A DNA stretch of 64,000 nt from positions 13,138 through 77,137 of the IMG/VR virus record IMGVR_UViG_3300005095_000179, one strand, 5' to 3'. The first letter of the stretch is position 1. Each line of letters begins with the position of its first letter. The translations under genes and the position numbers were made by a program. A model generated the notes under the pieces. The model was given only the letters and a program-made list of their open reading frames with translations, was not told the origin of the DNA and did no database searches. Positions 40,671 through 52,841 of this stretch are shown here, in pieces. This stretch comes from a virus.

Positions 40671-42071
40671 TTACGGGTTGTTTACGATAGTGATCTTAGT
40701 GATCAGTGTTGGTACTGGAGCTGCCATACCTGCTTGTAGAGCCACACCTTTTTGTGACTTAAGTGGGTTATGGTCAATACCATCTGTCATACTTGTCACG
40801 AACAGAGGTAGATACGGAGCATATACAACTGAAGTGTCAAACATAGAAGTTCCTTTAGAAACCATTAGGATTTCGTTAGCTGGAACTACACTTGATCTTA
40901 GAACTGGTTTACCATCTAGTGTACCGAAGAAGTGAGTACCAAGTACTGCATTCAAGTCACCAGCTGGTTTAAATCCTGGAAGAGTTCTGATTAGAGCAGA
41001 TGCTTCGTGACCAGCGATAAGCGCAGAAGCACCACCAGATCTACCAGCATTTGTTAGAATCATAGACTCTGCGTAGCTCAATGCGTCGAAGAATGTCAGT
41101 TTGTGTTCTGTGAAAGAGATTCCATCTGGAGTCGCTTTATTCCACTCTGTATTTCCTGTCGCGTTTACATACGCTTCCATAACGACGTTAGAAGCAACTT
41201 CAGTAGTAAGTTCTTGAGTCAAGTCCTTAGCCATAGTTTCTTCAACATTGATACCAAATCTTTTACCCAAAGAGTAAGATTTGAATAGACCAACATCACT
41301 TCTAAGTGCATAAGTTTTAGCTCTAACTGGCATACTATCGAATTCACTTCTGATAGTAGGAATCTCTGTTAGTGATTCGAAGTTAGTAGCATAGTTCATA
41401 GTGATTTTAGTAGTATCGTCTGGAGCAGTCAAGAATGTAACAGATACATCACCTGTTTCATAATCTACTGTACCATAACCACCAACACCGATGATATTAC
41501 CTTGGCCATCGTCGATTAGTTTGCTCGGAACTCCGCTTACTACAAAGTGAACTTCGAATTCTCTTTTTCTTACAGGAGCGTATTGTACTGTGCCAGCGAA
41601 TGGTCCTGTGTTACTTCCGTCACCGATAGCTAGTTCTTCACCTTTAATTTCTTCACCAGCGAACTGAGAAGGTCTATTAACTCTTCCATGAATTGGGTCA
41701 ATAAGTTTTGTGTCTTCAGATACTCCACCTCTTGAAGTTACTGCTACGACATTCTTAAAGTAAATTGTCCCTTGTTGTTCTTGAAGCGGCTGGATGCTCG
41801 CGAACAATGGAATAGGTGATTGTGCAGAAGAAGCCGTAATAACGTCTAGTGCGATATTAGGAAGTACACCAAGGTCTCCGTACCCACCATTTGACTCAGA
41901 AAATTCTTGGAATGCATCATATTGTTCCAATTGAGTACCAAGTGCGTAAAGGTCTTCGTTAGTCACTCCTCTTGTCTTAGCAACTGTTGATTTACTTTCG
42001 TAAAACTCCATATAATCTTTGTACTTATCAAAGTACTGTTCAACTTTTTCGTGTAGTTTTAAGTTTTCCAC
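40671..42071 (-). CDS. gp23: major capsid protein (T4 gp23 family)
   Basis: IQPL..QQGTIYF, VRAKTYALRS, GTLDG and VYAPYLPL motifs. Confidence 0.95.
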   Translation of the reverse strand: MENLKLHEKVEQYFDKYKDYMEFYESKSTVAKTRGVTNEDLYALGTQLEQYDAFQEFSESNGGYGDLGVLPNIALDVITASSAQSPIPLFASIQPLQEQQGTIYFKNVVAVTSRGGVSEDTKLIDPIHGRVNRPSQFAGEEIKGEELAIGDGSNTGPFAGTVQYAPVRKREFEVHFVVSGVPSKLIDDGQGNIIGVGGYGTVDYETGDVSVTFLTAPDDTTKITMNYATNFESLTEIPTIRSEFDSMPVRAKTYALRSDVGLFKSYSLGKRFGINVEETMAKDLTQELTTEVASNVVMEAYVNATGNTEWNKATPDGISFTEHKLTFFDALSYAESMILTNAGRSGGASALIAGHEASALIRTLPGFKPAGDLNAVLGTHFFGTLDGKPVLRSSVVPANEILMVSKGTSMFDTSVVYAPYLPLFVTSMTDGIDHNPLKSQKGVALQAGMAAPVPTLITKITIVNNP

Positions 42072-42192: not shown

Positions 42193-44133
42193 TTATCTTA
42201 CTAGATTCTCTAAGAATTTTGTTTTCTTCTCTGAGTCACTTGACCTTCTAGGGTTGTACTCAGGTATCTCTATGTGTTCTTTCATAGGAGCACTTCTTTT
42301 TACTCTTTTTTCTTCAGTCTTTAGTGCTTCTTGTAGCTCTTCTTCTTTATCATATAGTTCCATCATCTTTTCAACTATTGGGAGTTCCACTTTATAGAAC
42401 ATAGAATAATACTTAGCTTTAGTCTCATGTAATTCTTCACTGATATGAGTTCTTTCTTCTTTTAAATTCTCTAGTGTCTCTTTGATTTTTTCTTTTTGAC
42501 TTTGTACTTCTTCTAAGTTTTCTTCTAATTGACTGATTTCAGAATCTTTATCCTCTAGAATTTCTTTAAAGATAGCTTTATCACTTTCTTCTTTTTCTTT
42601 AAATTCTTTCTCAATTATTTCTAATCTTTCTTGAAGTTCATCTTTCATTTTAAGAGTCTCAGATAGTGTTTCGATAGTTTCAGCTAAGATAGTTTCCTTT
42701 TCAGAAAGTTCTTCTTTTAACTCATCTTTCTCTTGCTTTTCTCTTGAAATAGTTTCATGGATATCTTCTGGTACTTTATATTCTATCTTAGTTTCAGTAA
42801 CAACTTCTGGTTCTTTGTTCAGAGCTTCTTCTAGTTGTTTTGTAAGGTTTTTTGTTGCTTCTTTTAATACAGAAACTTGTCCCATTAACTCCTCTATTTT
42901 AGAGGTATCTTCCTTTTCTACAACCTTTTCTACCACAACTTCTTTAGTTTTTAGTTCTAAGATGAAATCGATAAATGACTCTTCTGCTTTTATTTCATGT
43001 GAATTATCTTCTTCAGAAGGTTCTTCTTTATTTTCTTCTCCGGAAATTTCTTCACCGTTATAATTAATTTTCTTCTCTAGTTCCTTTATCTTCTCGCAAG
43101 TTTTTTCGATTGACTCATCTATATCTTTTTCTTTTAGAATTTCGTCGCAAATTTGAGATAAAGATTCCATATCTTTAGTAGTAAGTTTAGAGTCTTTATC
43201 TAGGAATTCTATGAGGGTGTCATAGTATTTTTCATATTCGACATTATATCTCACTAACTTTGTTAAAAGTTCAACATATGCTATATAGTTAGACATTAAT
43301 TTAGCAGATACTCTAATATCCCCATCTTCCTCTTCTATTTTATTTGTTTTCTCATTTGAAGATTCAGATAGAATTTTGTTTTCCTTTACCACATTCTCTA
43401 ACATTGAAATAATTTCTTCTTTAGATAGTGACTCTAATAGTTCCTTATCGATACTTTCTTCCTTTTTATTTTCATTGATTGCCTCTCCTAACTCTAACCC
43501 ACATAAACCGTCTTCACAAATAATGTTGTGTTTATCTTCCTTAAGTGCTTCTATGTCTTCCTTAATGGACTCAACTAATTGCGGGTCTGTCTCTAAAAAT
43601 CCAGGTTGTATAACGAAATCTATACTTTCAATGACAAAGTTCTTATCATCCAATACCTTATATTTTCTTCCATCTTTCGTTTTTGTTTCATTCGTGAAAC
43701 CGCCAAATGCTCTTGTGCTGACATACATCTTAGAGCCAGACTTAAGGACTGTATTTAGAATTCTCCCACTTGGTGTGTCTAAGATTTCATATTCTGCAAT
43801 CCCTTGTCCAGTCTTTTTATCAATATAAATGTCTGTTACTTTATGACTGACTTTCCCAGACTCTAATAGTTCGTCTAAAGTATAATCCTTTGGGTGACCT
43901 ATACACCCAAACATTAAACCACGTTCCAGAGTTTGTTTTGTTTCTGGGTTTTTTAATGCATTTTCCCAAAGAGTTTTTGGATAGAATCTACCATTTCTAG
44001 AATATCCATCTAGGAAGAACGATGGTCCTTTTACCTTAGACAATACTCCTTCTTGAAGACTTTCTTTAGAAGCTTCTGTTATTTCTAATCCATTGACTTC
44101 AAAATTTTCGTAAATATATTGACTCATAATCAC
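42193..44133 (-). CDS. prohead protease (gp21-like) fused to a coiled-coil scaffold
   Basis: SRNGRFYP, GCIGHP, ILDTPSGRIL, VSTRAFG and DFVIQPGF, followed by about 430 aa of acidic coiled coil. Confidence 0.9.
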   Translation of the reverse strand: MIMSQYIYENFEVNGLEITEASKESLQEGVLSKVKGPSFFLDGYSRNGRFYPKTLWENALKNPETKQTLERGLMFGCIGHPKDYTLDELLESGKVSHKVTDIYIDKKTGQGIAEYEILDTPSGRILNTVLKSGSKMYVSTRAFGGFTNETKTKDGRKYKVLDDKNFVIESIDFVIQPGFLETDPQLVESIKEDIEALKEDKHNIICEDGLCGLELGEAINENKKEESIDKELLESLSKEEIISMLENVVKENKILSESSNEKTNKIEEEDGDIRVSAKLMSNYIAYVELLTKLVRYNVEYEKYYDTLIEFLDKDSKLTTKDMESLSQICDEILKEKDIDESIEKTCEKIKELEKKINYNGEEISGEENKEEPSEEDNSHEIKAEESFIDFILELKTKEVVVEKVVEKEDTSKIEELMGQVSVLKEATKNLTKQLEEALNKEPEVVTETKIEYKVPEDIHETISREKQEKDELKEELSEKETILAETIETLSETLKMKDELQERLEIIEKEFKEKEESDKAIFKEILEDKDSEISQLEENLEEVQSQKEKIKETLENLKEERTHISEELHETKAKYYSMFYKVELPIVEKMMELYDKEEELQEALKTEEKRVKRSAPMKEHIEIPEYNPRRSSDSEKKTKFLENLVR

Positions 44134-46367: not shown

Positions 46368-48341
46368 TTAGTTCACGAACTGCCCAGTTACTCCCTCTCC
46401 AAAAATGTCGGAGAATGGTTCAGCTTCATCATACCAGTCATTACCAACTACTTCATCTAATTCTTCGATAAAATCTTTATCTAAGTATGGTTTGTAATCA
46501 ACCTTAGTTCCTAGTATCCATATAGAGTTCGTTACTGCGTCAGCTATATCTTTACTCCCTGGAGTTCCGTCTTGGTTATGTTCTGGGTGATCTACCTTTT
46601 TATCGTCTTCTTTTAAGAAAACAAGTTCTCTATAAAGAATTTGATTATTCGGACCCTTTATTCTTTCGTCTATAATGGCATTTCTTAAACCAACATATGG
46701 GTCTTTCTTCCTATCTACAGAATTCATGATAGTTTTTATCCCGCCCTTCTCAAGAAGTTGTAGAGTATCAGTACTTTGGTAAGAATCCGAAACGACGTAT
46801 TCTATGTTTATCCCTAATCTCTGAAGTTCGAATATGAATTCCCTTATCTTATAAAGTTTTAGCTGTTCTCCTTTCGGTGGTCTAATACCAACAGCAAAGT
46901 CAACCCAATAAGAGAACTCTTTTAGTTCTCCTTCTCCAACAGTATCGTGAATATGAGACATACATAATCCATACCTATCCCCACTTACTGCTATGTCCAG
47001 ACCGATTACTTTTTGACTTCCTGGTTTAAACATATCTATTTTATCTACATCGAAGAAATCTATTAGGTTATCATTCTCGCCTAATATAATCTCATCCAGC
47101 TCACAAGCACCGTGTAATACTAAAGCGTTTTTTATCTTCTCTTTGAAAGGAATAAAAGTCCTTACATCAGAAACAGCCATACCGAGTACGTCTCTGATAC
47201 CAGCATAAATATCATCAAATTCGCCTCTGTATTCTATCGGTACATCAAATATCTTTGTTGGGTCAAATCGTTTTGCTCTTTCTAAGTCTTTATCATTTTC
47301 GATGAAGAATGGATCTGACTGATAGTCACCGATGAATACCTTGAAAGTTTCTCCTGAGTATTTTATCTTATGCTTAAGAACCTCAAATCTAGGAGCTGAG
47401 ATAACTAAGATATCTGATTGAGAGAATTCAGAGTCTTTCTTCCCTTCAGCTTCTGATTTTTCTTTAGCATTATCTATCATTGTCTGTATAAGAGACCCTT
47501 CAGTTGTCGCAGAAGATATCATAGTATAGTGTCCAGCCCATTTGTTTCCTTTTAGTAGGAAACGGGAGTTGATCCTATTATACATTTCTGTGATAATATT
47601 CTTAGAACCACCCTTTTGGATTTCTTGGTTTACCTCATCAGAAGAAGCCGCATACACGTTTTTACCAACAAGTGAGTGCTTTCTAGACACCATATTAATA
47701 TCAATGTTATTGATAAATAGAGATGACCTAGATTTTGTGTTGTCGAATTTAGACCTAAAAAACGGGCTTTCTCTAACTAGAGACATTATTGGGTCATAGT
47801 TCACCTGCTCAATATTTTCCATAGTTGAGTTTGTTAGGGTGAAATATATCTTTGCTGATTTAGGAAGTTTGAATCTCAACTGAGGTTCATCCATACAAAG
47901 GAGTCTTGCTAAGTCGTAAAGGAAAATAATTGAAGCCACTGTTGTGTTGTGGTGAATGGAACCATCTGGCGTAGTATAAAGGTGTGGAGCATCTATCCCA
48001 AAATCATAGACTACTTCGTCTTCTTTTTCTTTATAACTTTTTATTATCTTATAAGATTTTCCATCTTTATTATCTATAGATTTTGCTTCTGAAATTAAAG
48101 TTTCTTCTCCGCCAGAAATAACTTTGTGTTTATCTGAAGTTTCTAACCTTTCTCCATTTTCAAGTTCATAAGTATAAATATCAGATTTTTTCGTAACAAA
48201 GAAATTTATCTTAGATAAAGTTTCTTCAGGAGTTTTCACATAAACATCACAAGGAGTTGAGTGCGTTTCTTCTCTTTCCCCATTGTGTTTGATACCAAGT
48301 CGTTTATATAGTTCTCCTATTGGAATTCTTATTTTCTTCAT
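46368..48341 (-). CDS. terL: terminase large subunit C-terminal part, with N-terminal split-intein IntC (aa 1-132)
   Basis: Block B ETSDKHKV, block F VYDFGI and block G IHHN|T; then Walker B ASSDE and nuclease motifs GLDIAVSGD and KVDHP...SKDIADA. Confidence 0.93.
   Translation of the reverse strand: MKKIRIPIGELYKRLGIKHNGEREETHSTPCDVYVKTPEETLSKINFFVTKKSDIYTYELENGERLETSDKHKVISGGEETLISEAKSIDNKDGKSYKIIKSYKEKEDEVVYDFGIDAPHLYTTPDGSIHHNTTVASIIFLYDLARLLCMDEPQLRFKLPKSAKIYFTLTNSTMENIEQVNYDPIMSLVRESPFFRSKFDNTKSRSSLFINNIDINMVSRKHSLVGKNVYAASSDEVNQEIQKGGSKNIITEMYNRINSRFLLKGNKWAGHYTMISSATTEGSLIQTMIDNAKEKSEAEGKKDSEFSQSDILVISAPRFEVLKHKIKYSGETFKVFIGDYQSDPFFIENDKDLERAKRFDPTKIFDVPIEYRGEFDDIYAGIRDVLGMAVSDVRTFIPFKEKIKNALVLHGACELDEIILGENDNLIDFFDVDKIDMFKPGSQKVIGLDIAVSGDRYGLCMSHIHDTVGEGELKEFSYWVDFAVGIRPPKGEQLKLYKIREFIFELQRLGINIEYVVSDSYQSTDTLQLLEKGGIKTIMNSVDRKKDPYVGLRNAIIDERIKGPNNQILYRELVFLKEDDKKVDHPEHNQDGTPGSKDIADAVTNSIWILGTKVDYKPYLDKDFIEELDEVVGNDWYDEAEPFSDIFGEGVTGQFVN
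47946..48341 (-). mobile_element. split intein C-fragment (132 aa, no endonuclease domain)
   Basis: Ends His-Asn followed by Thr+1; lacks an N-terminal Cys1. Confidence 0.9.
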
Positions 48342-48368
48342 TTATCACCATTCACATTTGTTTTAAAC

Positions 48369-48375
48369 TATTTAA
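48369..48375 (-). promoter_or_regulatory. late promoter TTAAATA
   Basis: Upstream of the IntC-TerL gene. Confidence 0.7.
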
Positions 48376-48417
48376 GTTGATGGTTTAAATGTTTAAGGGG
48401 AGTTTCAAGAGTCGTGA

Positions 48418-48696
48418 CTAAGAGTATTTCTCTAGGTGAAGTTCAGTGGCTCTAAGTAGTTTTGCGTTTCCTCTTCCTAGAACACTTGGGTTTGTTAGCA
48501 CTTCTTTCTTTTTAAATCTTTCTTTTTGAGAATTATCAAACATTATTTTATCGAAAAAATGAGAAAGTATTTGTTCTGTATCTGTTGATTTTTTATTACT
48601 AAACGAGTCATAGACATTAGGAGAAAAGAACTCTGAACTAGAGGTTTTTCTTGCTAATTTAGAGAGGTTGCTTTTTAGACTATTTGATATCGTCAT
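48418..48696 (-). CDS. hypothetical protein
   Basis: 92-aa ORF; weak RBS. Confidence 0.35.
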   Translation of the reverse strand: MTISNSLKSNLSKLARKTSSSEFFSPNVYDSFSNKKSTDTEQILSHFFDKIMFDNSQKERFKKKEVLTNPSVLGRGNAKLLRATELHLEKYS

Positions 48697-48761
48697 TTTA
48701 AATCTTTTGGTTTTTAAATACTTAAGTGATACTCTCTAAATATAAAGTAATTTTATCTTTA

Positions 48762-48791
48762 TCTTGGCTTGAACAAGTGTTCAAGCCAAGA
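48762..48791. repeat. 14-bp perfect inverted repeat
   Basis: TCTTGGCTTGAACA-AG-TGTTCAAGCCAAGA. Confidence 0.85.
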
Positions 48792-48830
48792 GTTCCTAAT
48801 TCATCGACCTTTGTTATAAAGAAGTCAACT

Positions 48831-49637
48831 TCAACAGTCAAATTTACCTGAAACACATCCTTCGATGTACCACTCTGGTTCGTTTCCTTCTAATGGAGAA
48901 TTCTTAAACATGTCTTTAATATAGTTTAAGTTTTTAGGTTCCCACTTAGAGATATCTCCGTTGAATTCTGATTCTTCAAACATACAACACGTACTGGTAA
49001 CATTCCCGACATTCCACTTAGAGATATCTCCGTTGAAAGAAGATTGTCTGAACATGGTACCCATATCATTTACATTACTTACATCCCATTTAGAGATATC
49101 TCCGTTAAAAGAAGACCCATCAAACATCCCATACATACTCCTAACATTCCCAACATTCCAATTAGAAATGTCTCCATTAAATTTAGAATCATAAAACAAA
49201 TCTTCCATATCAGTGATTCTAGATACGTCTATGTCATTTAGGTCAGCGTCATCACCTCTTTTTTCTATTAATTCATTTATTAAAGATTCCAATTCTTCTT
49301 CATTTTTAGGAAAGAACTGATAAACTTTTCCACTAGGTTTTCTCGGTGGATTAGAACCTAAACTTCTTCCTAAGAACTTTTTCATGTCTCGTACTTTAGA
49401 AAGGTCTTTAATTGACTTTAGTTTTCTTGAAACTGAGAAATACTCATCACCTTCTTTGAATCCAACCAAGTACCCTTCAGTGTTGAAGACTAAAGTCATA
49501 TTGTCGTATTCTACTTCTAACCTATCCGGATATGTTTCGATGTTGATGGTTTTTGAACCTATGTAGTCCTTAATTAAAAACAAATACTTATCTGATTGGG
49601 ATCCGATTTTTAATTCTTGGATAATTTCTCTTATCAT
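48831..49637 (-). CDS. BspA/DUF285-family repeat protein
   Basis: DLNDIDVSRITDM and repeated FNGDISxWxVxNVxxM units; AAGGAG RBS; late promoter at 49665. Confidence 0.85.
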   Translation of the reverse strand: MIREIIQELKIGSQSDKYLFLIKDYIGSKTINIETYPDRLEVEYDNMTLVFNTEGYLVGFKEGDEYFSVSRKLKSIKDLSKVRDMKKFLGRSLGSNPPRKPSGKVYQFFPKNEEELESLINELIEKRGDDADLNDIDVSRITDMEDLFYDSKFNGDISNWNVGNVRSMYGMFDGSSFNGDISKWDVSNVNDMGTMFRQSSFNGDISKWNVGNVTSTCCMFEESEFNGDISKWEPKNLNYIKDMFKNSPLEGNEPEWYIEGCVSGKFDC

Positions 49638-49664
49638 TTTTGCTCCTTATGAAAATTCTAAAGT

Positions 49665-49671
49665 TATTTAA
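49665..49671 (-). promoter_or_regulatory. late promoter TTAAATA
   Basis: Upstream of the DUF285 gene; overlaps the stop of the 53-aa ORF. Confidence 0.65.
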
Positions 49672-49829
49672 TCTTCCATGTATTCACTTAATTCATATTT
49701 TTCGATATCTTCGTCACTCATACTGTAAACTATCTTTAGAATCCCATTCACTGATTTTGATATAGGTTGTTGAAGTTTATCTATCACTTCTTTCTCGAAA
49801 TTTATTCTTACTTGTATGAATTTTCCCAT
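49668..49829 (-). CDS. 53-aa protein with RHH-like N-terminus and IntN-like acidic tail (not in ORF track)
   Basis: MGKFIQVRINFEKEVIDKLQQPISKSVNGILKIVYSMSDEDIEKYELSEYMED; AAGGA RBS; overlaps the end of the endonuclease gene. Confidence 0.7.
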   Translation of the reverse strand: MGKFIQVRINFEKEVIDKLQQPISKSVNGILKIVYSMSDEDIEKYELSEYMED

Positions 49830-51663
49830 AATTTTTCCTTATTCTATATTTATAGTTTCCGCAATCATGAAATATCCTATATCCATTTATCATTAAATTT
49901 TCATTCGCTGTGAGGTGTTCGTTGAAATTTTCTAGTAAGTTCTTTAGTTTATGTTTTTGATACTTCATCCTATTCTCTAATTTAAATGTTTTAGGATTCA
50001 AAACGAACATGTTTGGCTTTGTGATTGATAACATTTTAGAAAACTTGGAATACACATTTTCCTTAAATGTCCACCTTCTATTCCCATATGAAATGATTTC
50101 TTCTACATTATTGTATTTGAAATATTCATTCAACAACTTAGAGTATCCTCCAATGACAATGGTGTTTCTCAGTGAAGCAAATCTATGAAGTTCGTATTCG
50201 TCCTTAAATCTAGACTTTCCGAATGTCATAACTGAAACTAATTCTCCATCTATCTCTAAACCAAAGTTTTCCTTCGCAGCAGTACTTCCTTGGAGATGAT
50301 TTAAATCTAAAAATTTAGAAGCTTCTTTATGAGAAATTCTTCTTACTTTAGTTTTTCTAGCTGGTATTTTATCAGCTTTCCCAAGTTTTAGGAGAATTTT
50401 ACTTTTCCAAATTTCTTTTTTAATTGGGTCTAACCACTCATCTTCGTTTATATGAAATAAGTGAATATCTCTTTCTTCACACAATTCAGTTTTATTCAGG
50501 TGATAGTTCTTGTCCATAATCTTATTGAACTTTTCGTATTTAGAAATTCCAGAGGTGTGATACATTAATCCGTTGAATTCTATCGCAAAGTTCAGTTCTG
50601 GGATAAAAATGTCTAATTCAAGAGGAGTAATGGTTCTCCTGTCATTCTTTCTTACTTCACCATTATAGTTTTCTTTTATGAAGTCATATATCTCAAATTC
50701 TAAACTTTCTCTTCTGAAGAATTTGTCATCAAATCCCATATCTCCCAATATTGGAATTAAGTATGCTCTAGAAACATTATAGTACTCTTCCATTTCTTTT
50801 AAGGAAACCTTATCTCCTTTAAGAAATTTATCTTCCACCACTTTCTTAGAAAGTTCTAAATCTGAATTAAAATCTTTGAAGTAGTAATGTCTAACTCCAT
50901 ATTTCTCAATGAAAGTAGCTTCCAATGAATTATACCATTTTCTATTTCTTTCTTCAAAAATCTTTAAGCCAAGTTCTTCTCCGTACTTTTCTATACATAT
51001 TTCTTTACTGAACCGTTTTTGAATTTCACTGATTTTCTTTCTAGCTTCTTCCTCACTAAGTCCTCTTTTGGTCCAATACAGTACTTGTGTATAAGTGACC
51101 CTTTTACTTGAATTATCTGAATCCCAGAATGTTTTAGCTAAATCACTTTGGTACTTTGACACCAATTCTTTCGCTTCTTTTTGTGAGAATCCTTGAGATA
51201 TATGCCTTTCTTCTCTATTTGGAAGATTTCTAGTTCTTTTCTTTATAAGTTCTTTTCGTTTTTGTTCATAATCATCTTTATATTTCTTTTTCATGAATGT
51301 CTCAGAACAAGAATCGAAAATCTTTCTTTCTTCTTTTGACATTTTTTGTATAGTAGAAGTTCCCTTCTTAGAATTGGTATCTGCTAAAGATTTTGACATT
51401 TCCTCAGCTTCTGTTTCGGAATATCCCCTGATAGTCCAAAATTCCTTTCTGAAGAAACTTTTTTGTGATCTACCGTATATTTCATTGTAGAATTTTGCGT
51501 GGAAGTACGAGTCATTGAAAGTCTCATCTAAGTTTTCTTCAAACCACTGCTTTATTTCTTTAGTATGATGTTTGTAATTATGGTCTTTTGATTTTAAGTA
51601 AGTGTCGAATTCTTCTAAAGTTTTTATTTCTTTGAAGAATTTTCTGTTTTTGTTAAGTTTCAT
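49777..51663 (-). CDS. free-standing Hef/Vsr-like homing endonuclease
   Basis: ELDIFIPELNFAIEFNGLMYH...HINEDEW nuclease core; ARKTKVR...FLDLNHLQG domain; WTxRGxSExEA repeats. Confidence 0.85.
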   Translation of the reverse strand: MKLNKNRKFFKEIKTLEEFDTYLKSKDHNYKHHTKEIKQWFEENLDETFNDSYFHAKFYNEIYGRSQKSFFRKEFWTIRGYSETEAEEMSKSLADTNSKKGTSTIQKMSKEERKIFDSCSETFMKKKYKDDYEQKRKELIKKRTRNLPNREERHISQGFSQKEAKELVSKYQSDLAKTFWDSDNSSKRVTYTQVLYWTKRGLSEEEARKKISEIQKRFSKEICIEKYGEELGLKIFEERNRKWYNSLEATFIEKYGVRHYYFKDFNSDLELSKKVVEDKFLKGDKVSLKEMEEYYNVSRAYLIPILGDMGFDDKFFRRESLEFEIYDFIKENYNGEVRKNDRRTITPLELDIFIPELNFAIEFNGLMYHTSGISKYEKFNKIMDKNYHLNKTELCEERDIHLFHINEDEWLDPIKKEIWKSKILLKLGKADKIPARKTKVRRISHKEASKFLDLNHLQGSTAAKENFGLEIDGELVSVMTFGKSRFKDEYELHRFASLRNTIVIGGYSKLLNEYFKYNNVEEIISYGNRRWTFKENVYSKFSKMLSITKPNMFVLNPKTFKLENRMKYQKHKLKNLLENFNEHLTANENLMINGYRIFHDCGNYKYRIRKNYGKIHTSKNKFRERSDR

Positions 51664-51726
51664 TCATACTCCCTGACTTGATACAGTCTTTTAAGCTTAA
51701 ATATGAAATAATCGTTGGTTAAAGAT

Positions 51727-52089
51727 TTAATCGACGAATTCTTCTAAGTTATATTTTTCTATATCTTCTTCTGAAAGATAGAATTCCATTTCCTGTTTTT
51801 CACTCAGACATTTCCCTATCCCCGTTGCCCCACTCAATAAAACAACCTTATACTTATTAGTTTCATAAAAAGGTGTTGGGAATATATCCACAAGCCTTTC
51901 TTTCCAGAATGGGAAAACAGCTTTTCCACCATCCAAAGAACCACCTAAATAATAATCATTAGAAATAAACTCAGAAATTGTTGGAGGAGTTTCTATGTAA
52001 GAATTATTCTTAGCATAAAGGTCGAAGAGATAGTTCATATCTCTTCCATCTAAAGATTCTATTCTATCTTTATCTAATTTCAGGCTCAT
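51727..52089 (-). CDS. terL: terminase large subunit N-terminal part with C-terminal split-intein IntN (aa 94-120)
   Basis: PPTISEFISNDYYLG, then Walker A LSGATGIGK followed by CLSEKQ... instead of T. Confidence 0.92.
   Translation of the reverse strand: MSLKLDKDRIESLDGRDMNYLFDLYAKNNSYIETPPTISEFISNDYYLGGSLDGGKAVFPFWKERLVDIFPTPFYETNKYKVVLLSGATGIGKCLSEKQEMEFYLSEEDIEKYNLEEFVD
51730..51810 (-). mobile_element. split intein N-fragment (27 aa)
   Basis: CLSEKQEMEFYLSEEDIEKYNLEEFVD; Cys1 directly after the Walker A Lys. Confidence 0.88.
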
Positions 52090-52243
52090 CTTCTTCTCTT
52101 TTCTTTTTAGGATTTGGAGCAGTAGGAATTACTCCTAAATCACCATATCCTCCATCAGCACCACCATTACCGACACTTACAGTTGCTCCTGAAGAAGCTG
52201 CCTCTCCTTCTTCTTTAATCTTTTTGATAGTTTCTCTAATCAT
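52070..52243 (-). CDS. 57-aa protein (not in ORF track)
   Basis: MIRETIKKIKEEGEAASSGATVSVGNGGADGGYGDLGVIPTAPNPKKKREEDEPEIR; GAGGA RBS; fills the gap between flanking genes. Confidence 0.8.
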   Translation of the reverse strand: MIRETIKKIKEEGEAASSGATVSVGNGGADGGYGDLGVIPTAPNPKKKREEDEPEIR

Positions 52244-52244
52244 T

Positions 52245-52841
52245 TTATTCCTCTTTATCTTCTAATGCTTTTCTTTGCTCTTCTTCTACATTACTAAGGA
52301 AATTATCATCGTGTAGTAATGAACTAAGAATACTCTGTAGTTTATCATCGTCATCGTCATCATCACTTTTCAGAGACTCTTTAGCGTGTAAAGATAGTAA
52401 GTTTGCCTCTAGTGTACTGAAGTCTACTTCTTTTCTGATTTCTCTTATCATCTTGAACGCATCTGAACGCATCATTCTGGTATTTGTGTAAAGAAGTAGT
52501 AAATCACCTTTATTCATGTCATCTAAGATATCATCGTTGAATAATTTATCTTCGATTTTTCCTAGGAAACCTTCTAGTTTTTGAAGTTTTACCGCAGTTA
52601 CTTTAGCTAAGTTCGCCATAGCTAGGTCTATTGCTAGTTCTGCTGTACTGACTTCATGGATGATATTTCTTTCTGGGATTTTTCTATCTTTTACAAGACT
52701 TTCTGTTTCTTGTTTAATTCTGTCTGTCATGTCTGAGACTTCAGAATATTCTCCGTTCCCAGAAGATTCAGTTTCGAATTCTAGAAGCTCCTTTTCTGCT
52801 TCTAGTAATTCAGCTGCGACAACGCTACTTTCATCTTTCAT
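52245..52841 (-). CDS. putative terminase small subunit
   Basis: Helical acidic protein; first gene after the late promoter at 52866, upstream of terL. Positional inference only. Confidence 0.4.
   Translation of the reverse strand: MKDESSVVAAELLEAEKELLEFETESSGNGEYSEVSDMTDRIKQETESLVKDRKIPERNIIHEVSTAELAIDLAMANLAKVTAVKLQKLEGFLGKIEDKLFNDDILDDMNKGDLLLLYTNTRMMRSDAFKMIREIRKEVDFSTLEANLLSLHAKESLKSDDDDDDDKLQSILSSLLHDDNFLSNVEEEQRKALEDKEE

Follow-up and report, generated by a model that had tools for sequence, protein, structure and literature searches.

Why should a short protein encoded beside the terminase genes of a phage carry a near-copy of a capsid peptide? The question arises from the window analyzed here, a 64-kb stretch of a 77-kb IMG/VR viral contig with a G+C content of 35.6% and almost all genes on the minus strand. 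Within it, a 57-aa mini-protein contains the peptide GGYGDLGVIP, which is identical at nine of ten positions to GGYGDLGVLP, residues 62-71 of the major capsid protein. The preliminary description of this locus reported the likeness and proposed a capsid-arm mimic that might fill empty sites at the portal vertex or modulate assembly or DNA packaging. Coordinates of the features are collected in Table 1.

The mini-protein gene begins with an ATG one base past the stop of the upstream 198-aa ORF, preceded by AAGAGGAA, a good ribosome-binding site (SD), and its final 20 nt overlap the start of the TerL N-terminal fragment. The late-promoter word TTAAATAG is neither enriched nor near the gene. The encoded protein lacks a basic domain and carries a net charge of about -2. 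It opens with a leader (MIRETIKKIKE) whose I-K-E occupies residues 9-11; a linker of Gly, Ala and Ser connects this to the junction module, which is followed by a short charged tail. It has no Pfam or PHROG match, and tblastn against GenBank phages gave no match for it, for its long-form relative P0007 or for a 117-aa relative in L022. The gene lies between a putative terS and the TerL N-terminal fragment as originally described, with "terS" assigned by synteny only, as the 198-aa product has no family match.

Relatives obtained via the capsid protein and TerL share a gene order that runs from topoisomerase subunits through the 198-aa terS-like gene, a variable "slot" gene and TerL to a 491-aa portal-like, a 235-aa and a 646-aa protease-like protein, followed by the capsid protein. 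The complete genome of one of them, G002, spans 155 kb and has terminal repeats. In Rhizobium phage RHph_TM30 (Kleczkowskaviridae), this order is retained between the terS-like and capsid genes, but there is no slot gene; the run there carries annotated portal and "head maturation protease" genes. TerL itself is broken in the window after the Walker A motif G-A-T-G-I-G-K by a short Cys-starting tail, and a separate C-part picks up at residue 133 of a 657-aa ORF. Between the two parts lie a 628-aa homing endonuclease (PHROG, 1e-93), a DUF285 protein and a 92-aa ORF. The split recurs in L003, L025, L026 and L059, with TerL uninterrupted in L007, L008, L009, L011 and L022. ORFs resembling the C-half of the endonuclease are positioned just downstream of the capsid gene in L006 and L024, indicating that this endonuclease family occupies several sites in the clade.

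Table 1. Locations of the features discussed (window positions unless another record is named)
Feature	Location	Strand	Basis
Mini-protein gene, 57 aa	52070..52243	-	ORF, SD, coupled start
Junction module in mini-protein, residues A29-P45, ADGGYGDLGVIPTAPNP	52109..52159	-	Short-form alignment
198-aa acidic terS-like protein, directly upstream of mini-protein gene	52245..52841	-	Position only
TerL N-terminal fragment, directly downstream of mini-protein gene; Walker A, then short intein-N-like tail	51727..52089	-	
TerL, both parts	46368-52089		
Major capsid protein, 466 aa, Pfam Gp23 family	40671..42071	-	Pfam E 5.7e-18
Capsid maturation junction E59|S60-P71 (E-S-N-G-G-Y-G-D-L-G-V-L-P)	41859..41897	-	Predicted cut F-S-E|S
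Prohead protease, 646 aa, with C-terminal extension of ~400 aa	42193..44133	-	PHROG, fold, invariant residues
C-terminal extension of protease	42193-43383	-	
Head/neck ORF, 127 aa	37792-38175	-	
Unrelated ORFs with slot-type leader	48831-49637; L009 from 1036; L026 from 12287	- (window)	
ORFs resembling C-half of 628-aa homing endonuclease	L006 11485-12363; L024 14817-16001		
Interrupted capsid gene	L059 11886-14106		
Basic-domain protein P0036, 92 aa	L059 4397-4675		
Start of annotated short gp21 form of T4	L060 11515-11560		

The likeness between the two peptides is more than chance. In a six-frame scan of the window, G-Y-G-D occurs only twice, at mini-protein residues 32-35 and capsid residues 63-66. 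An ungapped BLOSUM62 comparison of a capsid 14-mer with the open frames of the 77-kb contig gives a score of 54 for the mini-protein and 28 for the next match. A profile HMM of seven mini-protein relatives, with the window copy left out, was run on the 245 window ORFs and recovers the mini-protein (1.5e-18), the only other match being the capsid protein (E 1.8e-5). Applied to six frames of five related viral records, the slot-family profile has the capsid gene as its sole non-self match in three. The DNA of the two ten-residue stretches differs at 9 of 30 positions, almost all synonymous, and the likeness is thus kept at the protein level, with no recent duplication. Similarity stops at the Pro, after which the capsid protein continues N-I-A-L-D-V-I and the mini-protein T-A-P-N-P. 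Only ~13 residues are common to both, with no HK97/Gp23 fold over most of the mini-protein, which separates it from gp24-like vertex paralogs; a capsid query of the contig finds one locus and no second capsid-like one.

The capsid protein, 37% identical to annotated Rhizobium phage capsid proteins, carries the peptide at a predicted maturation junction. Across 12 capsid homologs (48-85% identity), E59, N61, G62, D66, L67, G68 and P71 are invariant, and the module is preceded in relatives by F-S-E, F-T-E, V-N-E, F-K-E or F-A-E, a hydrophobic-x-Glu pattern that matches the T4 gp21 rule L/I-x-E quoted in PMC9026906. An AF2 model from 12 sequences, poor overall (pLDDT 47) and used only for the helical N-domain and the low-confidence arm, places helices over residues 2-55 and then a low-confidence stretch from 53 to 119, fitting a removable N-domain plus an arm. 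The original proposal that the shared peptide directly follows a plausible gp21-type site (F-S-E|S) agrees well with this predicted helical 55-residue N-domain and with the gp21-fold protease of the same phage. PDB sequence searches returned one weak capsid match (9ukm) and none for the protease profile. RHph_TM30 conserves the capsid module, and a second copy of the junction was not found there, so the primary role of the module may be structural, in the mature arm.

Two further observations concern capsid-like junctions and capsid genes. The 127-aa head/neck ORF contains S-F-S-E-E-S-N-G-S at residues 53-61, resembling the start of the capsid junction (F-S-E-S-N-G-G); D-L-G-x-x-P is absent, the junction profiles give no score, and the segment may be another protease site. 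In L059, the capsid gene is divided into a 268-aa N-part, a 157-aa ORF and a C-part in another frame, an arrangement that suggests an intron or other insertion.

The mini-protein belongs to a highly variable family encoded between the terS-like gene and TerL. Its homologs comprise five further short and about 20 long proteins, and the long-form profile matches 39 cluster representatives among 1.84 billion. Short forms measure 53-66 aa (window, L007, L026, P0003-P0006), one form 118 aa (L003) and long forms 130-290 aa (L008, L009, L013, L017, P0007-P0017, P0025); forms of 90-117 aa (L011, L022, P0018 and others) consist of leader and basic domain only. Three elements recur: an N-terminal leader, e.g., M-[IL]-[KR]-E-I-[IL]-E or M-K-F-K-L-x-E; the module [A/T/S]-D-G-[G/S]-[Y/M]-G-D-L-G-x-x-P-[S/T]-[A/D]-x-N-P; and a C-terminal domain of ~85 aa, very basic and bearing two conserved Cys. 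Searches for the basic domain in the 77-kb contig and at the loci of the remaining mini forms found none.

Conservation within this family is concentrated in the module. Alignment of eight short forms shows D30, G31, Y33-V38 and T41-P43 invariant, with all else varying, and in the four copies with DNA the module codons vary freely at synonymous sites while the peptide is unchanged, which marks the gene as real and the module as its selected core. The residue two positions ahead of D-G is Glu in 22 of 24 module-bearing slot members. The P1' residue is Ala in 20, Thr in three and Ser in one, and P3 is Leu or Ile in 11; with Glu at P1, this again follows the L/I-x-E rule of T4 gp21 (PMC9026906). 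The window mini-protein is one of the two exceptions, with Gly28 at the Glu position (G-A-D-G).

Searches for family assignments and further members of the slot family added little. PHROG and Pfam scans gave nothing consistent, and no terS or packaging-accessory homology was detected for the mini-protein or the long forms, apart from an isolated match of the L022 117-aa protein to phrog_3503 "head scaffolding protein" (E 4e-5) that was not seen in ten other members; in the window's own contig, phrog_3503 has no match. A metagenome scan with the TerL profile yielded three loci, two of them redundant. A genome contig scan for further loci found none, the family profile re-run over viral contigs gave nothing new, and for P0008 the Atlas gave sub-threshold matches only.

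The leader and the basic domain also occur apart from the module. In L059, a basic-domain protein (P0036) is encoded upstream of the terS-like gene instead of between it and TerL; its leader ends M-I-A-E|A, and the junction module is absent. The leader M-I-R-E-I-I/M-L-R-E-I-L is also present on unrelated ORFs, namely a 268-aa DUF285 protein and 241-aa and 83-aa ORFs, and may represent either a common head-targeting signal that ends I-x-E or simply a preferred A-rich start. The idea that "MIREII" opens many genes in general finds no support in the complete genome G002, which has two loose matches only.

The 646-aa protein encoded next to the capsid gene is a gp21-type protease by several lines of evidence. 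It matches PHROG "head maturation protease" (7.7e-20) and reaches 21.8 bits, below the cutoff, with Pfam Peptidase_S77; PF03420 is on record for many of its 71 homologs. An AF2 model of residues 1-250 from 58 sequences (pLDDT 81) has as its sole significant PDB matches in Foldseek three chains of T4 gp21 5JBL (E 8e-10, probability 1.00), with a TM of 0.80-0.83 by target, and in this model the N-terminal 250 aa adopt the T4 gp21 fold. His80 and Ser139 are invariant among 58 homologs and adjoin the positions of the T4 catalytic residues H85 and S140 (PMC12991175). The C-terminal extension varies in length (618-700 aa proteins in relatives) and may be a scaffold, comparable to the protease-scaffold fusions encoded by other viruses; a stand-alone gp22-like gene was not found.

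The protease is a third class of protein to bear the module, at its N-terminus in some lineages. At least 90% of 58 homologs keep E20 of the I-T-E|A site close to the N-terminus, and the junction that follows it in the window protease is a short form without the Gly-rich loop. Six homologs (P0046 of L022, P0047-P0050 and P0069 of L059) instead carry an N-terminal [ILV]-x-E followed by [A/S/E]-[D/N]-G-S-x-x-D-L-G-x-x-P-x-N-V-L-[A/S]-V-V, which resembles the capsid junction beyond the Pro as well (capsid P-N-I-A-L-D-V-I). In the 154-kb genome G003, the best non-self match of the capsid 15-mer is the protease N-terminus, with a score of 48 against 32 for the next; 100 shuffled capsid queries gave a mean of 29 and a maximum of 45.

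Profiles built from one class of junction recover the others. Built only from the six protease junctions, the protease-junction profile was run on six-frame ORF sets. In G000, it places the capsid protein first (5e-4), the mini-protein second (0.011) and the protease third (0.29); in G002, first place again goes to the capsid protein (3.3e-6), followed by the protease (0.0046) and then the slot protein (0.57). In G003, the capsid protein is second (8.7e-5), behind the protease itself, and in L059 it scores 1.8e-6. The slot-junction profile in turn matches proteases P0048 (1.1e-8), P0049 (3.6e-6) and P0047 (2.8e-4). These reciprocal matches establish the module as common to three head-assembly protein classes, namely capsid, protease and slot proteins.

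Comparison of the copies within each genome suggests co-variation, which the preliminary description had named as a check on its proposal. The window has G-G-Y-G-D-L-G in both capsid and slot proteins, and L007 has G-S-Y in both; L003 pairs capsid G-G-Y with slot G-S-Y, so Tyr is present in both copies across one clade (window, L007 and L003). Capsid G-S-M accompanies slot G-S-V in L009, and capsid G-S-K accompanies a degenerate slot G-S-T-N-D-A-P in L008. With the second copy on the protease, L022 pairs capsid G-S-I-A-D-L-G with G-S-T-D-D-I-G, and L059 pairs E-E-N-G-S-R-S-D-L-G with E-E-D-G-S-R-G-D-L-G. The full L059 junctions are F-A-E-E-N-G-S-R (capsid) and F-L-E-E-D-G-S-R (protease), and Arg at the variable position and Glu at P1' each occur in L059 only, in both of its proteins. 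Rare variants thus appear to co-vary within genomes through about two events in independent lineages, a suggestive positive outcome. Recent DNA duplication or gene conversion is ruled out as the source of the likeness, given the base differences in the window pair and nucleotide identities of 36/60 and 33/60 in the L059 and L022 copy pairs.

The bearer of the second copy differs between genomes, and the copy can be missing. Of eight genomes with all three genes readable, four carry the module on the slot protein, two carry it on the protease and none has it on both; in the remaining two, the second copy is degenerate (G002) or absent (L011). The function served by a second copy is therefore dispensable.

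The module looks like a shared head-maturation signal rather than a portal-vertex filler, judging from its occurrence on the protease of related phages. The Glu-Ala that precedes it in most slot proteins, together with its position after the I/L-x-E site of the protease in other lineages, ties it to maturation cleavage or to docking inside the prohead. The explanation that we tentatively favour, quite possible though short of probable, is that the window protein is directed to the prohead and, carrying no cargo, acts there as a substrate or pseudo-substrate in imitation of the capsid maturation junction. It would be the minimal member of a small head-assembly family encoded beside the terminase genes, whose functional core is the copied junction, E|[A/S]-[D/N]-G-[G/S]-x-G-D-L-G-x-x-P. 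The module would serve the gp21-type maturation system as a prime-side element for recognition or docking, taking its bearer to the site in the prohead interior at which the capsid junction is engaged; this site is most likely the protease. Cleavage of most slot members would occur after the Glu, and from the long forms it would free, inside the head, a very basic domain that probably binds DNA, in the manner of T4 internal proteins. Having the module, Gly in place of Glu and no cargo, the window copy would compete as a substrate or pseudo-substrate, or be trimmed at I-K-E to an internal peptide.

Several points weigh against this explanation. Known gp21-type proteases show almost no prime-side specificity, recognizing P4-P1 plus a P1' preference (PMC10052503, PMC9026906), and a 12-residue prime-side element would therefore be unusual. 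The window copy, moreover, lacks the P1 Glu at its junction and departs from the E-[A/S/T]-D-G pattern of a protease substrate; at that site it would be, if anything, a pseudo-substrate. The dispensable second copy, the capsid module kept in RHph_TM30 and the small number of independent co-variation events count against the explanation as well.

The main rival retains the structural part of the original proposal, and we consider it unlikely, though a serious alternative. After maturation, the tip of the capsid N-arm would dock on an adjacent subunit or capsomer, and module-bearing proteins would occupy that docking site, so that the mini-protein, the long basic forms and the protease-scaffold would tether the core to the shell or fill portal or vertex sites. 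The module does coincide with the invariant tip of the capsid arm and is kept even without a second copy, implying a structural role of its own, and the within-genome match of rare variants would suit copies fitting one shared pocket. In T4, the corresponding N-terminal part of cleaved gp23 is found within the head before expansion, probably against the scaffold; it makes inter-capsomer contacts after expansion and is disordered in the five subunits facing the portal (PMC9546572, PMC7136217). A pure docking mimic, however, needs neither the near-universal Glu-Ala before the module nor its placement right after the I/L-x-E site of the protease, capsid and mini-protein similarity ends at the Pro, and nothing links the mini-protein to the portal. 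What holds of the capsid-arm mimic is a conserved, selected copy of the post-cut capsid segment; the filling of empty arm sites on the mature shell is not supported.

A further reading, which we regard as improbable, treats the module as a pseudo-substrate latch that restrains the gp21-type protease until the shell is built. The latch would act in cis at the protease N-terminus in some lineages and in trans through the terminase-linked slot protein in others, with the Glu-less mini-protein of the window as a non-cleavable version. Such a latch could also limit stray proteolysis sensed by host defences; a CBASS enzyme serves as a tripwire for T4 gp21 (bioRxiv 10.64898/2026.03.04.709575; PMC12991175).

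A packaging accessory is quite improbable: the slot protein would work with terS and TerL, its module docking the terminase on the prohead, like lambda gpFI, and its basic domain binding DNA. Most relatives do keep the slot gene between the terS-like gene and TerL, and the long-form C-terminal domain is very basic with two conserved Cys. This support is positional, however, and several arrangements run counter to it, including mini forms without the basic domain, the L059 basic protein upstream of the terS-like gene with the module on the protease instead, and Kleczkowskaviridae with the same gene order and no such gene. Apart from gene position, nothing points to the portal-vertex filling or DNA-packaging role first suggested.

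Finally, a decaying remnant, with the mini-gene left over from a long form after basic-domain loss and the motif similarity functionless, is very unlikely given the selection on the module: the window copy does lack the basic domain, P1 Glu and C-terminal I-V-D-G-E element of its closest relatives, and its end overlaps the TerL start, but the ORF is intact with a strong SD, and in at least nine independent short forms D-G-x-Y-G-D-L-G-V-x-x-T-A-P is invariant amid freely varying flanks and synonymous sites.

Under the favoured explanation of a prohead-directed substrate, one of the closest known systems is the set of T4 internal proteins IPI, IPII and IPIII, which are small, mostly basic and highly variable, with diverse genes in which the signal alone is conserved (PMC3012670, PMC9026906). 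Their entry into the prohead core is directed by a short leader at the N-terminus, which ends L/I-x-E and is removed by gp21 (PMC3012670, PMC9026906). By analogy, the slot family, with its leader, Glu site and basic cargo, looks like a set of internal or core-type proteins: many members start with comparable leaders, and the long forms are very basic. The window copy shares the leader, with its I-K-E as a sequence pattern, and the same phage encodes a gp21-fold protease, but the basic mature protein is found only in its long relatives. The slot proteins further differ from T4 internal proteins in having no sequence homology to them (no PHROG or Pfam match), and in the placement of the signal: in T4 it precedes the cut and is removed, whereas here the module follows the putative cut and copies the capsid junction.

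The protease likewise combines shared and distinct features with T4 gp21 (Peptidase S77). The fold (5JBL) and the conserved His and Ser are the same, and the N-terminal [ILF]-x-E site (E20) corresponds to L-I-E near the T4 gp21 N-terminus; T4 gp21 cuts after L/I-x-E with few other determinants (PMC9026906). Unlike T4 gp21, the protease here is fused to its ~400-aa C-terminal extension and in some lineages bears a capsid-like module at its N-terminal junction. Residues 23-37 of T4 gp21 (E-S-H-D-G-K-D-L-G-L-K-P) resemble the module by eye only. The stretch opens the annotated short gp21 form (M-L-E-S-H-D-G-K-D-L-G-L-K-P), immediately ahead of the first core strand, which by eye is also where the module would stand; the junction profiles give no score to T4 gp21 or gp23. 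For a gp21 modulator that acts in trans, T4 Inh offers the nearest precedent, annotated in NC_000866 as "minor head protein inhibitor of protease". Compared by annotation, it is much larger than the mini-protein and encoded elsewhere, and its mechanism is not known to involve capsid-junction mimicry.

How gp21-type proteases stay silent until assembly ends and how core proteins find their place in the prohead are open even for T4, and reviews name gp21 autocleavage as a major gap. A portable post-cut module whose variants match within genomes offers a peptide-level handle on recognition, docking and maturation timing. If it proves to be a targeting or latch peptide, it would represent a second type of capsid-targeting signal, distinct from the removed T4 leader, and could serve cargo loading into heads. 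The clade that carries it is uncultured, with genomes of ~155 kb that also have fractured, intein-bearing terminase genes.

A short cleavage motif common to the capsid protein and another head-assembly protein has a precedent in Staphylococcus phage 80alpha. There, the capsid and scaffold proteins share the N-terminal cleavage motif of ribosomal protein L27, and one protease, a host enzyme of a different family, processes both; the 80alpha motif precedes the cut and is removed, and the module described here follows it.
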